Shown here: one piece after another, positions 1 through 5,111 of the stretch | Position numbering within the stretch: the first letter of the stretch is position 1 | How the letters are laid out: every line of letters starts with the position of its first letter | Source of the DNA: a virus | Lineage: Duplodnaviria > Heunggongvirae > Uroviricota > Caudoviricetes | Reading direction: 5' to 3' (one strand) | Length of the DNA stretch: 5,111 bases | Virus record (IMG/VR): IMGVR_UViG_3300029504_000052 | The notes under the pieces: generated by a model | Seen by the model: only the letters and a program-made list of their open reading frames with translations | Told to the model about the DNA's origin: nothing | The model's database searches: none | Program-made: the position numbers and the translations under genes

Positions 1-1
1 T

Positions 2-142
2 ACGCAGCGAATTGAGCGGCATAACCTGAATCTGAGGCAGCACCTGGCACGGCTGGGACGGAAGTTGCTGTCGTTCTCAAAATCGGTGGAGCTGCATGAC
101 AAAGTCATCGGGCATTATCTGAACATAAAACACTATCAATAA
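2..142 (+). CDS. 3' end of an upstream ORF of unknown function (partial; N-terminus lies before the window)
   Basis: Frame 2 is open from the window edge for 46 codons (...[32 protein letters not shown]) to a TAA at 140-142, while the other two + frames hit stops within the first 30 nt. It is followed by a 157-bp gap with a promoter-like site. I do not recognise the product. Confidence 0.3.
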
Positions 143-213
143 GTTGGAGTCATTACCCGTTGTTTGTATCCCAGCAATCTGTTGTTTGGTTTTTATTCCA
201 TTAAGGTGGGGGC

Positions 214-899: not shown

Positions 900-1189
900 T
901 GGTGAATTTACGTAAAGCGGCTAAAGGCCAGATGTGCCAGATCAGAATCCCTGGCTACTGCAATCACAATCCCGAAACCTCTGTGCTGGCGCATTACAGG
1001 CTGGCGGGGACGTGCGGAACAGCGACAAAACCACACGATATGCAGGCGGCGATAGCCTGTAGCTCATGCCACGATCTAATCGACGGGCGGGTAAAAACCA
1101 GCGATTACACCAAAGAAGAATTGCGCCTGATGCATGCTGAAGGGGTTTTTCGCACACAAGAAATCTGGAGAAAGAAAGGTCATTTATGA
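899..1189 (+). CDS. ybcO: YbcO-like DUF1364 protein (putative small nuclease, 96 aa)
   Basis: 96 aa with four cysteines (CQIRIPGYCN ... CSSCHDL), matching my recollection of DLP12 YbcO in size, Cys pattern and position just upstream of Q. Start overlaps the upstream stop (TAATG) and stop overlaps the Q start (ATGA). Confidence 0.8.
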   Translation: MVNLRKAAKGQMCQIRIPGYCNHNPETSVLAHYRLAGTCGTATKPHDMQAAIACSSCHDLIDGRVKTSDYTKEELRLMHAEGVFRTQEIWRKKGHL

Positions 1190-1728
1190 TTTACCCAACG
1201 AATACAGGAAAAAGCGGAGAACACCTTCGCCTCACCACGCTGGAAAGTGTCTGGATTCAGGGAAAACTACGTATGTGGGGGCGCTGGTCGTATATTGGCG
1301 GTGGCAGGTCAGGGAATATGTTCAATCAGTTGTTGGCATCCAAAAAACTGACGAAAACAGCCATTAATGAAGCCCTGCGCAGAATGAAAAAAGCGGGAAT
1401 AGAGAAAGCTGAGCTGGAAGCGTTTTTGCGAGAGATGATCAACGGCAAGCAAAAGAGCTGGCTGGCGCATTGTACTGATGCAGAGGCGTTATGTATTGAT
1501 CGAGTCATAAGTGAGGTGCTGGCAGAGCATCCAGGATTGATTTGCATTCTCCGGCAACGCTATGAAGGGCGGGGGATGACTAAGCGCAAAATGGCTGAAT
1601 TGCTAAATGATGCACACCCAGAGTGGTGTTTTAGCACATGCGAAAAACGGATTGCTAATTGGTTAGCTGTTGCTGAGTATGCCCTATATATTCCCATGCG
1701 TGAATCATTTGCTGAGAAAATGGCTTGA
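1186..1728 (+). CDS. Late-gene antitermination protein Q family (180 aa)
   Basis: Last gene of the coupled nin cluster, followed within about 80 bp by a strong intrinsic terminator (the classic Q / pR' / tR' arrangement) and then by a lysis cassette. Contains a W-G-x-W segment (LRMWGRWS) reminiscent of Q-family proteins. Which Q subtype (lambda, 21 or 82) cannot be decided by eye. Confidence 0.7.
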   Translation: MIYPTNTGKSGEHLRLTTLESVWIQGKLRMWGRWSYIGGGRSGNMFNQLLASKKLTKTAINEALRRMKKAGIEKAELEAFLREMINGKQKSWLAHCTDAEALCIDRVISEVLAEHPGLICILRQRYEGRGMTKRKMAELLNDAHPEWCFSTCEKRIANWLAVAEYALYIPMRESFAEKMA

Positions 1729-1808
1729 TTTCTTACGTATAAACTGCTTCAATTTTGCTATGCTTCGTAAAGCTGTATCGCGAGGCGGATTGCAGACATG
1801 GACATCGT

Positions 1809-1835
1809 AAAAAAACCGCTTAATGCGGTTTTTTT
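1809..1835 (+). terminator. Rho-independent terminator, tR'-like
   Basis: AAAAAACCGC - ttaat - GCGGTTTTTT: an inverted repeat with a 4-bp GC core flanked by an A-tract and a 7-T run. It is symmetric, so it could terminate in both directions. Confidence 0.7.
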
Positions 1836-2006: not shown

Positions 2007-2155
2007 CTGATGTCGTCAACTCATATAAAATGAGATGAGAGATCATTGCAGGGTGGTTTGTAATTCGCTGTTTAGCGGGACAATATGTTGTCTGATACAA
2101 GACACCCGACGCCTCAGATTACTATAATAAAGACGAAGCATCCTTTGTATTGACC

Positions 2156-2181
2156 AACCGCCTGTTTAGGCGGTTCTTTTT
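2156..2181 (+). terminator. Candidate rho-independent terminator
   Basis: AACCGCC - tgttta - GGCGGTT followed by CTTTTT: a 7-bp stem, 6-nt loop and T-rich tail. The reverse-strand version lacks a T-tract. Confidence 0.45.
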
Positions 2182-2713
2182 GGGCTGGTTTATTGTATGC
2201 CAAATGATTATTAAAAAGGTTGTGTTAATAACAAAATCCGAAATAATATGCCTGCATATTTTTATCTTGCTTATATTCTGCATATTGTGCATAGCAGGCT
2301 CATCCCTGCAATCAAAACTGTATGATGAGTATTTTTTGTTTTCCTTTTTTCCAGTCATCTGATGATGACCTGCTTCTTTTTAATCCGGATCGACATCAGT
2401 TTTTTAAGATAATTCCTGCGAGTTATATGCATAAATACCACAAACTCCGCATTTTATGTGGTTGGGAGTTGCCGGGCGCGCAGTGAGTTTGCTAAGAAAA
2501 CTCCTGCATGGTGAATCCCCCTGTGCGGTGGGGTGATACCATTAACCTTTTCTGTCGCCGACAGGTATCACGAACATTTTGTTCACCGGGAGGCACCCGG
2601 CACCATGCACTTCAATAGATTCTCTCCACATTATGGATATTCTTTCAGAATATCCCACGCAGACTTTGTGTAAATGTTAACAAATGTGCGTTTTATTTGA
2701 TCTGATTCGCTGT

Positions 2714-2772: not shown

Positions 2773-3201
2773 ATGGGTTTTCGTAGCGCATCAATTCTTA
2801 CGTTGATTATTAGTGGGATTATTATCGGGTGCACTGATGCTGTATCGACAAATTATCATGACCGTACATCATATTACTCCGATAAAGCAATAGAGACACA
2901 GTATGTGAGTTCATCTGAACGTACTTCTGATGTTAGTGAGGATATCCGTCTGTATGCCCATCAAATCAAGAGCGCCATCGAAAAACAGTTCGGGGATGCG
3001 AGTAAGTATTCAGGAAAAGAGTGTACACTGAGAATGCATATGGCCCCGAATGGCCTTCTACTGGAGGTTAAAAGAGAAAGTGGAGACCTCGATTTATGTC
3101 GTGAAGCGATGAATGCGATAAAGAATGCTGATATACCTGCCCCCCCTTCGCCGGAAGTATATAAAGTATTTCAAAATGGGGTGCTGGATTTTAAACCCTG
3201 A
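2773..3201 (+). CDS. Prophage lipoprotein with a TolA C-terminal (domain III)-like domain, paralog 1 (142 aa)
   Basis: N-terminus MGFRSASILTLIISGIIIGC is a type II signal peptide with lipobox IIGC and Thr at +2, predicting outer-membrane sorting. The C-terminal ~80 residues (YAHQIKSAIEKQFGDASKYSGKECTLRMHMAPNGLLLEVKRESGDLDLCREAMNAIKNADIPAPPSPEVYKVFQNGVLDFKP) closely parallel my recollection of the E. coli TolA C-terminus, including both Cys and the terminal LDFKP. Confidence 0.85.
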   Translation: MGFRSASILTLIISGIIIGCTDAVSTNYHDRTSYYSDKAIETQYVSSSERTSDVSEDIRLYAHQIKSAIEKQFGDASKYSGKECTLRMHMAPNGLLLEVKRESGDLDLCREAMNAIKNADIPAPPSPEVYKVFQNGVLDFKP

Positions 3202-3351
3202 TATTTATTGTTTTGTAATAAACGGTTTCGGCTTAGGTTTGTTCTGACACAGCTACGGCACTGAGCTAAATTTAGCGGATAGTCAGCTCTGAGCCAGTGG
3301 CGGACGTAACAACTACTATTGCTGAGATTTTAATGGATTGAGGAGCAAGAA

Positions 3352-3747
3352 GTGGGATTAAAGAAAATCGTTATGTTGACTTTTTGGGTCGGTTTTGTTG
3401 CGGGATGCACACCTTTACACCCTTCAGATTGCCACAAAACTACTGCTACAGGTAGTTGCAGTTCAGGACGCTGGGATGATCAGGATGAATGGGGGGCGCA
3501 AGCGCGGGGAATCAGAGCTGCAATTAATGCCAAACTTGATGAGCCGCATAACTGGAAAGGGAAAAAATGCAGGTTGCATATGGAATTCTCTCAGGATGGC
3601 ACGGCGTTAAAAATATCTACCAGTAACGGTGATAAAGCCTATTGCGAAGCGATAAAGTCCGCAGCTCATAAAGCCAAATTTCCGGCCTTCAACAATCCGG
3701 AAGTCTACAGAGATTTTCAGAAATCTGGCTTTGACATGCGAGGTTAG
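3352..3747 (+). CDS. Prophage lipoprotein with a diverged TolA-III-like domain, paralog 2 (131 aa)
   Basis: GTG start at 3352 with an AGGAG ribosome-binding site at 3341-3345. Signal peptide MGLKKIVMLTFWVGFVAGC has lipobox VAGC and Thr at +2. The C-terminal domain (GKKCRLHMEFSQDGTALKISTSNGDKAYCEAIKSAAHKAKFPAFNNPEVYRDFQKSGF) keeps the two-Cys spacing and the PEVY..FQ motif of paralog 1, at roughly 30% identity by eye. Confidence 0.8.
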   Translation: MGLKKIVMLTFWVGFVAGCTPLHPSDCHKTTATGSCSSGRWDDQDEWGAQARGIRAAINAKLDEPHNWKGKKCRLHMEFSQDGTALKISTSNGDKAYCEAIKSAAHKAKFPAFNNPEVYRDFQKSGFDMRG

Positions 3748-3872
3748 CTCTTCAATTACTATATCTCATTCATAGCAAACTGACAGATTTGATGATGTTC
3801 TATATACGAAACCTGTGATGTCAAGTCTGAGCTAATACAAATAAACATAATATCAGAGAAATACATTTTATT

Positions 3873-3895
3873 AGCTCGCTACGGCGAGCTTTTTA
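3873..3895 (+). terminator. Candidate rho-independent terminator closing the lipoprotein cassette
   Basis: AGCTCGC - tacg - GCGAGCT followed by TTTTAT: a perfect 7-bp stem and 4-nt loop, about 125 bp after the paralog 2 stop. Confidence 0.5.
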
Positions 3896-3998
3896 TATTG
3901 CATCGTCTCCAGCATATATATCAATTAAGGCTCTGATTGATGTGTCTGAAAGCCTACACATAATAACTATGCCATCCGTTCCGTGCGGAGGTGAGGCT

Positions 3999-4214
3999 AT
4001 GAAATCCATGGACAAAATTTCAACAGGCATTGCCTACGGCACCTCCGCAGGCAGTGCTGGCTACTGGTTTTTACAGTTGCTCGATAGAGTAACTCCGTCA
4101 CAGTGGGCTGCAATCGGTGTGCTGGGTAGTCTGGTATTTGGCCTGCTGACGTACCTGACAAACCTTTATTTCAAGATTAAAGAAGATAAGCGCAAGGCTG
4201 CGAGAGGTGAATAA
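3999..4214 (+). CDS. S: Class II holin (pinholin), phage 21 S21 type, with dual-start motif (71 aa)
   Basis: [71 protein letters not shown] is near-identical to my recollection of S21 / EssD. Met1 and Met4 give the antiholin/holin dual start. GGAGGTGAGG ribosome-binding site at 3987-3996. The stop overlaps the endolysin ATG (TAATG). The ORF-track extension back to 3942 uses a GTG and is not the real start. Confidence 0.9.
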
Positions 4215-4343
4215 TGCCTCCATCATTACGAAAAGTCGTTGCTGCTGCTATTGGTGGCGGAGCAATTGCTATAGCATCAGTGTTAATCACTGGCCCAAGT
4301 GGTAACGATGGTCTGGAAGGTGTCAGCTACATACCATACAAAG
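4214..4343 (+). pseudogene. R: SAR endolysin (R21-type lysozyme), N-terminal fragment cut by IS2
   Basis: [47 protein letters not shown] matches the Gly/Ala-rich SAR domain and N-terminus of the phage 21 endolysin as I recall it. Homology stops abruptly at about 4343, where the IS2 terminal inverted repeat begins. The 105-aa track ORF 4214..4531 is a chimera reading into IS2. Confidence 0.85.
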
Positions 4344-5111
4344 ATATTGTTGGTGGATTTGCCCCTATATTTCCAGACATCTGTTATCACTTAACCCATT
4401 ACAAGCCCGCTGCCGCAGATATTCCCGTGGCGAGCGATAACCCAGCGCACTATGCGGATGCCATTCGTTATAATGCTCGAACGCCTCTGCAAGGTTCTTT
4501 GCTGCCGTTAACCCGTCTGGTTTGGGCATGATACTGATGTAGTCACGCTTTATCGTTTTCACGAAGCTCTCTGCTATTCCGTTACTCTCCGGACTCCGCA
4601 CCGCCGTGTTCTTCGGTTCAAGTCCCAACATCCGGGCGAACTGGCGTGTTTCATTAGCCCGGTAGCATGAACCATTATCCGTCAGCCACTCCACTGGAGA
4701 CGACGGAAGATCGTTGCCGAAGCGGCGTTCCACCGCTCCCAGCATGACGTCCTGTACTGTTTCACTGTTGAAGCCGCCGGTAGTCACCGCCCAGTGCAGT
4801 GCCTCACGATCACAGCAGTCCAGCGCGAACGTGACACGCAGTCTCTCTCCGTTATCACAGCAGAACTCGAACCCGTCAGAGCACCATCGCTGATTGCTTT
4901 CTTTCACGGCCACTCTGCCTGTATGTGCCCGTTTCGATGGCGGTACAGCAGGTTTTCGCTCAAGCAACAGCGCATTCTGGCGCATGATCCGGTAAACACG
5001 TTTGGCATTGATCGCAGGCATACCATCAAGTTCTGCCTGTCTGCGAAGCTGCGCCCATACCCGACGATAACCATACGTGGGCAGCTCTCCGATAACATGG
5101 TGTATACGGAG
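4344..5111 (-). mobile_element. IS2 (IS3 family) insertion sequence, partial; continues past the window end
   Basis: TGGATTTGCCCCTATATTTCCAGACATCTGTTATCACTTAACCC at 4344-4387 matches the reverse complement of the IS2 right terminal inverted repeat as I recall it. It is followed on the minus strand by the IS2 orfB (InsD) transposase. Confidence 0.9.
4365..5111 (-). CDS. insD: IS2 transposase OrfB (InsD), C-terminal ~250 aa; N-terminus lies beyond the window
   Basis: Minus-strand translation ...[52 protein letters not shown]...[19 protein letters not shown]...CLEI is the DDE integrase/transposase of IS2. The frame stays open upstream of the track's Met (5021) to the window edge, so the true start is outside the window. 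Stop at 4365-4367. Confidence 0.9.

Follow-up and report, generated by a model that had tools for sequence, protein, structure and literature searches.

The window (the whole 5,111-nucleotide stretch analysed here) is what remains of the late genes of Rac, a cryptic prophage of Escherichia coli. It opens in the right end of an IS1 element, runs through a DUF1133 gene, two genes for lipoproteins with TolA C-terminal domains and a gene for a phage-21-type pinholin (essD), and ends in an R21-type endolysin gene (rrrD) which is broken off by the right end of an IS2 element (Table 1). The essD product matches the Pfam family 'Bacteriophage P21 holin S' with an E value of 2.1e-35, identifying it as a pinholin, and RefSeq assigns the name essD to the gene in strain S171-1. 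Its stop codon overlaps the rrrD start codon (ATAATG); phage 21 R/RrrD and the S21 pinholin are arranged in the same way, with a P21-type holin gene directly upstream and a stop/start overlap.

The DUF1133 protein scores 26.1 bits against Phage_antitermQ, for which the cut-off is 26, and its best matches in the PDB are to the Q21 antiterminator; these are weak (E 0.27), with a W..G.L..WG.W.Y motif in common. On these comparisons it is plausible to call the gene Q-like, and DUF1133 may represent a divergent Q21-type antiterminator family. A long non-coding stretch separates the Q-like gene from the first TolA-like gene and holds a match to the STnc100 small RNA family. The promoter-like element and hairpin at 2099–2175 are reminiscent of a late promoter and terminator of lambdoid type, and two further hairpins are listed in Table 1.

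Table 1. Features of the window, followed by the sites in rrrD and Rz at which insertions of IS2 or IS2-like elements were mapped; positions are those of the window unless another numbering is named.
Feature	Position	Strand	Remarks
IS1 right end (1–157) and right copy of the 9-bp duplication CGTTGTTTG (158–166)	1..166		768-bp IS1
DUF1133 gene	1186..1728	+	Intact, where a Q antiterminator would sit; Pfam DUF1133, E 2.5e-107
Hairpin and T-run	1803–1830		After the Q-like gene; spotted by eye
Promoter-like element AAGACA-18-TATAAT	2099–2128	+	
Strong terminator hairpin	2156–2175		Plus strand; about 30 nt beyond the promoter-like element
STnc100 sRNA family match (Rfam)	2476–2662	+	86.6 bits, gathering score 47, full length
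Lipoprotein gene, TolA C-terminal domain	2773–3201	+	Intact; PF06519, E 2.4e-23
Lipoprotein gene, TolA C-terminal domain	3352–3747	+	Intact; PF06519, E 1.3e-14
Second terminator	3873–3890	+	Just 5′ of the pinholin gene
essD, phage-21-type pinholin (class II holin)	3999..4214	+	71 aa, MKSM dual start; PF04971, intact
rrrD 5′ fragment, nt 1–140	4214..4353	+	R21-type SAR endolysin; SAR membrane domain, E35, D44
Chimeric 105-aa ORF	4214..4531	+	47 RrrD residues and 58 IS2-derived residues
GTTGG, 5-bp IS2 target, left copy of the target-site duplication	4349..4353		rrrD nt 136–140
IS2 right terminal inverted repeat (IRR), 41 bp	4354..4394	−	Exact match, also at five other loci
IS2 right-hand 758 bp	4354..5111	−	3′ part of transposase orfB, stop codon 4365–4367; continues off the window
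Target GTTGG	rrrD nt 140		4 independent events
Target GGCAT	rrrD nt 165		1 event
Target CCGGA	rrrD nt 171		1 event
Target GGAAA	rrrD nt 173		1 event
Target CCAGA	rrrD nt 252		2 events
Target CAACG	rrrD nt 294		2 events
Target CAATT	rrrD nt 340		3 events
Target CTGTC	position 553 (in Rz)		1 event
Target ACCGT	position 575 (in Rz)		1 event

The two TolA-like lipoproteins are paralogous, each with a lipobox cysteine, and their genes follow the Q-like gene and precede the lysis genes. The promoter-like element and the hairpins together suggest that they would be transcribed as part of a Q-dependent late unit; that a free TolA domain III might serve colicins or filamentous phages as a decoy is speculation. 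Both genes are identical in the E. coli strains M10, F467, 13C1065T and S171-1. PGAP labels the first of them a pseudogene in several records, a label that we rejected, as its 142-aa reading frame is the same as that of the M10 copy, which is annotated as intact. An earlier note on this DNA had described the lipoprotein cassette and the Q region as intact; this is borne out for the Q-like gene and both lipoprotein genes, and holds for the pinholin gene too, by their nucleotide identity in relatives with an intact or a broken R gene. Its further proposal, that this cargo has been selectively retained, does not follow, since the identity reflects recent shared ancestry and is uninformative on selection.

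Two complete E. coli genomes, S171-1 (from a pangolin, China) and EC20-72C-1 (from a fish gut, Viet Nam), match the window from end to end, apart from one mismatch in 5,111 positions (C where the window has T, at 1768), and are identical to one another over 13.1 kb around the locus. In S171-1, the nearest relative rather than the window's own genome, the locus is Rac, lying between ttcA and uspF/ompN. The genes run ttcA, intR, xisR, rcbA, ralR, recT, recE, racC, kilR, sieB and regulators; next come a transporter/metabolic block, hokD, IS1, a DUF1367 gene, a YbcO-like gene, the DUF1133 gene and the two TolA-C-terminal lipoprotein genes; and the order continues with essD, the rrrD fragment, an IS2 fragment, IS3, a 5′-truncated rzoD/Rz, trkG, fragments of ynaK and tfa, pinR, uspF and ompN. 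The annotation of Rac in S171-1 and EC20-72C-1 contains no terminase, portal, capsid or tail genes. Because these morphogenesis genes are absent, Rac is cryptic with or without IS2; the earlier note had called the prophage probably cryptic, but the broken lysis cassette which it gave as the reason is not the cause, head, tail and packaging genes being missing from the nearest genomes. For the same reason, the plaque test that it proposed would be uninformative on the IS2 insertion.

The Rac prophage of E. coli K-12 retains remnants of rzpR and rzoR beside trkG and is not known to have holin or endolysin genes. It shares with the window-type Rac the chromosomal site, the backbone (ttcA, intR, recET, kilR, sieB, trkG and pinR) and the spanin-gene remnants beside trkG, whereas the window-type Rac has in addition the Q-like gene, two TolA-like lipoproteins, the pinholin, the endolysin stub and transporter genes. 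Decay has proceeded here via IS1, IS2 and IS3, and in K-12 via a deletion of its own.

The IS1 element was inserted intergenically, 142 bp upstream of the DUF1367 gene, at a site which is empty in M10; among the loci examined, the insertion is common to the window, S171-1 and EC20-72C-1 only, and F467 is without it. At position 1768 the window carries T, whereas all of the fetched E. coli genome loci which cover this position carry C. The T allele is also present in three gut-metagenome contigs (L009–L011), which have 4–5 mismatches to the window, none of them reaching the rrrD/IS2 junction; in two of these contigs, one end shows a short match to an IS1 end in inverted orientation. Neither a 36-mer around position 1768 (T allele) nor a 42-mer across the rrrD/IS2 junction had a match in the representative-genome collection.

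The interrupted endolysin gene and the IS2 end

The rrrD reading frame opens at ATG 4214, and its first 47 residues, ending in YIPYKDIVG, are those with which the product of the intact Rac allele in strain M10 begins. Native sequence stops at nucleotide 140 of the gene (position 4353), within codon 47 (GGT), which is restored by chance by the first T of IS2. The frame then continues into the element as far as a stop codon at 4529–4531, and a Pfam search with the resulting 105-residue chimeric product returned no family, and so no lysozyme. The window therefore holds only the first 28% of rrrD, which makes it a pseudogene; PGAP likewise labels the gene in S171-1 a pseudogene without its C-terminus. 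The earlier note had described an R21-type SAR endolysin truncated by an IS2 end after about 44 codons: the truncation is confirmed by the exact terminal repeat and 758 identical bases, whilst the number of codons kept is 47.

The M10 allele (L007, 9393–9887) encodes 165 residues with a Pfam Phage_lysozyme domain, and aligns over all 165 residues both with RrrD (PDB 4ZPU; E 2.5e-111, two substitutions, both conservative) and with the phage 21 lysozyme (PDB 3HDE; E 9.6e-111; 3HDF was also matched). The E-X8-D-X5-T motif, the canonical lysozyme triad (PMC9239132), is located in this allele at E35, D44 and T50. It is through the M10 allele that the 47-residue fragment is recognised as homologous to R21/RrrD. 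The stub keeps E35 and D44 and what appears to be the same Gly/Ala-rich N-terminal domain (18 residues) as in the 3HDE and 4ZPU proteins, and loses T50; residues 48–165 of the endolysin (118 of the 165) are missing and are replaced by IS2-derived sequence. Neither the lysozyme fold nor the complete triad of the R21/RrrD GH24 family is thus found in it. Since T50 and the rest of the GH24 fold are absent and IS2 residues are fused on, the stub should not function as a muramidase, and loss of this activity can safely be inferred. The claim that the lysis cassette is inactivated is upheld to this extent, with T50 and residues 48–165 gone and a lysozyme match lacking in Pfam. Unlike phage 21 R and RrrD, with which it shares residues 1–47 by way of the intact Rac allele, the gene in the window is a pseudogene.

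An exact 44-nt match to the right end of IS2, TGGATTTGCCCCTATATTTCCAGACATCTGTTATCACTTAACCC, begins at position 4354, so that the start of the element at 4344, as first proposed, was ten bases too early. From 4354 to 5111 the window shows no differences from the first 758 bp of the complete 1331-bp IS2 of F467, and two differences from three other annotated IS2 copies. A minus-strand reading frame (4365–5021) matches the integrase core families rve (E 9.6e-19) and rve_3 (E 1e-18), as expected of the DDE transposase orfB. The locus thus has the marks of IS2, namely the 41-bp IRR, near-identity to a full-length 1331-bp element and an rve-type orfB; the exact IRR, 758 of 758 identical bases and the rve domains together rule out a chance resemblance. 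The alignment check which the earlier note had suggested accordingly came out in its favour, the terminal segment being an IS2 end with 100% identity over 758 bp. A length of 41 bp is that reported for the IRR of IS2, a member of the IS3 family which transposes by a copy-out/paste-in route via a minicircle (PMC3299598). The window copy has the same right end and rve (DDE) transposase as IS2 elsewhere, which, where complete, is 1331 bp long with a 5-bp duplication; unlike these, the copy in the window lineage is most likely a 953-bp remnant without a left end.

The region beyond the window and the probable order of events

Only the right end of IS2 and the left GTTGG copy fall within the window, and the full duplication is seen at the same site in F467. 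There (L002) a complete 1331-bp IS2 has GTTGG on both sides and is followed by rrrD nt 141–498, the 5′ part of Rz, an IS3 element, the 3′ end of Rz and trkG; this IS3 sits in the overlapping Rz/Rz1 genes and is flanked by an ATG duplication. The rrrD–IS2 segment of F467 is 100% identical to that of the window lineage, and over the 4 kb upstream F467 and S171-1 are 8 bases apart. The extension past the window end which the earlier note had advised, made here by way of relatives, yielded the other IS2 end, the GTTGG duplication and the rest of R, all in F467.

S171-1 and EC20-72C-1 have a different arrangement. Their IS2 is only 953 bp long (0 differences from F467) and abuts the left end of IS3, TGATCCTACCC, at a junction which in these genomes lies 195 bp past the window end; the right GTTGG copy, present in F467, is deleted. 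The IS3 itself is identical to that of F467 and has the same right junction; here, however, it is flanked by AGG and ATG and has no duplication. Compared with F467, 990 bp are missing: IS2 has lost 378 bp at its left end, rrrD 358 nt and Rz a further 249 nt, and the second GTTGG is gone as well. As a single alignment piece, the deletion junction was found in S171-1 and EC20-72C-1 only, among 5426 genomes. Whether the locus is an insertion or a rearrangement, which the earlier note could not judge, thus has a two-part answer: a simple insertion stands in F467, and an IS3-associated deletion follows in the nearest genomes. In the nearest genomes a plain insertion alone does not hold, as the rest of R is absent from these two genomes, at one mismatch from the window; the note itself had named such an absence as refuting it.

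These structures are consistent with a sequence of events in which IS2 first entered rrrD at GTTGG (nt 136–140), its right end facing the 5′ part of the gene, and left a 47-residue stub fused to 58 IS2-derived residues. IS3 would then have inserted into the overlapping spanin genes Rz/Rz1 in the same lineage, and an IS3-associated deletion of 990 bp would have removed the left repeat of IS2 with the start of orfA, one GTTGG copy, rrrD nt 141–498 and the first ~250 nt of Rz. As the deletion begins at an IS3 end, it may stem from the IS3 left end acting intramolecularly, or a second IS3 copy may have entered IS2 and recombined with the first; both routes yield the same product. The pinholin gene would be left as the sole survivor of the lysis cassette. 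The IS2 and IS3 insertions are both shared with F467, and the deletion would have come later; IS1 would have entered this lineage at some other point. We put the probability of this whole account (IS2 insertion, IS3 insertion and a 990-bp deletion, all in Rac) at roughly 85%. Deletions adjacent to an IS are a classic result of the activity of the element, or of two of its copies recombining; here too one IS3 junction is unchanged, the other has moved by 990 bp and the duplication is lost, but the endpoint lies inside another IS, giving a nested IS2–IS3 scar.

Since the window is one SNP away from the deletion genomes and has the IS1 insertion in common with them, its own genome very probably carries the deletion as well, although the window stops 195 bp short of the junction. 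The IS2 piece in the window is then most likely an immobile remnant. It is also conceivable that simple insertion is all that happened in the source genome, which would keep a complete, potentially mobile IS2 together with the rest of rrrD and Rz. F467 has exactly that arrangement with an identical rrrD–IS2 segment, the window stops inside IS2 before the two structures part, and the window SNP at 1768 is absent from both deletion genomes. We nevertheless consider this unlikely, given that IS1 with its 9-bp duplication is shared by the window with S171-1 and EC20-72C-1 and is absent from F467, that the window differs from the deletion genomes by one base in 5,111 as against the 8 bases which separate F467 from S171-1 in 4 kb, and that the two deletion genomes are identical over 13.1 kb. 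A misjoin at a repeated IS during assembly can hardly account for the junction: misassembly at IS copies is a classic problem, and the window has IS1 at one edge and IS2 at the other, but the junction recurs in three complete genomes with independent assemblies and in two others (in MS1657 within another prophage), and F467 carries a full-length IS2 with a perfect 5-bp duplication.

Further IS3 insertions were observed at related loci. F467 has a second IS3 (L002, 4744–6001) exactly in the overlap of the essD stop and rrrD start codons, with a TAA duplication, and in strain MB06173 (L012, about 3095–4355) an IS2-like element in rrrD is split by an IS3 ~35 bp from its left end.

rrrD as a target of IS2

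The rrrD/IS2 junction at nucleotide 140 is also present in strains MS1657 and VTB96929v. In MS1657 it lies in a different lambdoid prophage, apparently complete, which carries cII, O/P-type replication genes, nin genes, terminase and portal; the R allele there is diverged, and the IS2 copy differs at 7 positions. Inheritance of the MS1657 junction by shared ancestry was considered and rejected, as the flanking R sequence diverges within 60 bp on the left and 21 bp on the right; the 7 IS2 differences and the other prophage speak further against it, and gene conversion is a possible alternative route. The same GTTGG has also been hit in the opposite orientation by a ~95–98% IS2 variant in S1-CAM-02-A (in a DLP12-like prophage) and in MB06173 (in Rac).

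Altogether, at least 16 independent insertions of IS2 or IS2-like elements were mapped at nine positions in rrrD/Rz, four of which were used more than once (Table 1), with reuse spanning both orientations and Rac, DLP12-like and other lambdoid prophages. Fifteen loci were mapped by script and MB06173 by hand, on the basis of perfect 5-bp duplications (the hot-region loci are window 4349–4353, L002, L003, L004, L005, L008 and L012–L022); a difference in orientation, IS variant or prophage was the criterion for counting events as independent, and the IS2 junction queries under-sample sites upstream of nt 81 and 95% IS2 variants. The mapped elements are all 1331 bp long, except those of PK8566 (1330 bp, frameshifted) and MB06173 (IS3-interrupted). 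When 16 events were placed at random on 580 positions, fewer than 12 distinct sites never resulted in 200,000 trials.

An apparent orientation bias of IS2 proved to be an artefact built into the query, as a synthetic query for the opposite end found about as many insertions. Alignment of the nine sites, on both strands, gave no convincing sequence motif; a target consensus with C at −4 and A/T at −3 from the duplication was a weak symmetric hint, nine sites being too few to establish a motif. Target choice by IS2 is known to be non-random and has been linked to intrinsic DNA curvature (PMC3299598), with hot targets in a region of phage P1 and in hemB (Sengstag 1983 and Lewis 1994, as cited in PMC3299598). 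The rrrD sites resemble these in being non-random and are reused in both orientations, and differ in that the target is a prophage endolysin gene; in a non-exhaustive literature search we did not find such a gene listed as an IS2 hot region.

Exact-site reuse in both orientations points to a target preference of the transposase rather than to selection, because the same nucleotide positions are reused and selection for gene loss alone would not give that. The notion that IS2 knock-outs are adaptive, disarming a dangerous pinholin/SAR-endolysin pair whilst the cargo of a domesticated prophage is kept, draws on the number of independent insertions in R21-type rrrD or the adjoining Rz and on the intact pinholin, TolA-like lipoprotein and Q-like genes at the present locus. 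It is nonetheless decidedly improbable, since reuse of four of the nine sites in both orientations is what target preference predicts, non-random targets of IS2 are already on record (PMC3299598), and Rac is defective with or without R. Few copies, moreover, are interrupted: of 5426 genomes, 3946 carry R21-type rrrD and 3789 have a copy that spans 80% or more of the gene, as against about 20 genomes in which an interrupted copy was found. A combined proposal, in which R21-type endolysin genes form an IS2 hot-spot cluster across unrelated prophages and selection against a live pinholin/SAR-endolysin pair has perhaps made the knock-outs more frequent than transposase preference alone would, is at best a long shot.

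Significance of the locus

IS-mediated decay of the lysis cassette in an already defective prophage is an ordinary event of a known kind, and the rrrD pseudogene beside an IS2 transposase is already annotated in RefSeq. What is added here is the reconstruction of the events, the identification of the prophage as Rac and, as a side observation, the IS2 hot spot. The main value lies in annotating the region correctly, as a triple-IS scar (IS1, an IS2 remnant and IS3) in Rac and not as a recently disabled functional phage, with an IS2 piece that is probably immobile. Finding one and the same IS junction in different strains is no proof of common descent, and rrrD provides a natural catalogue of IS2 target choice, which could help to define what IS2 recognises.
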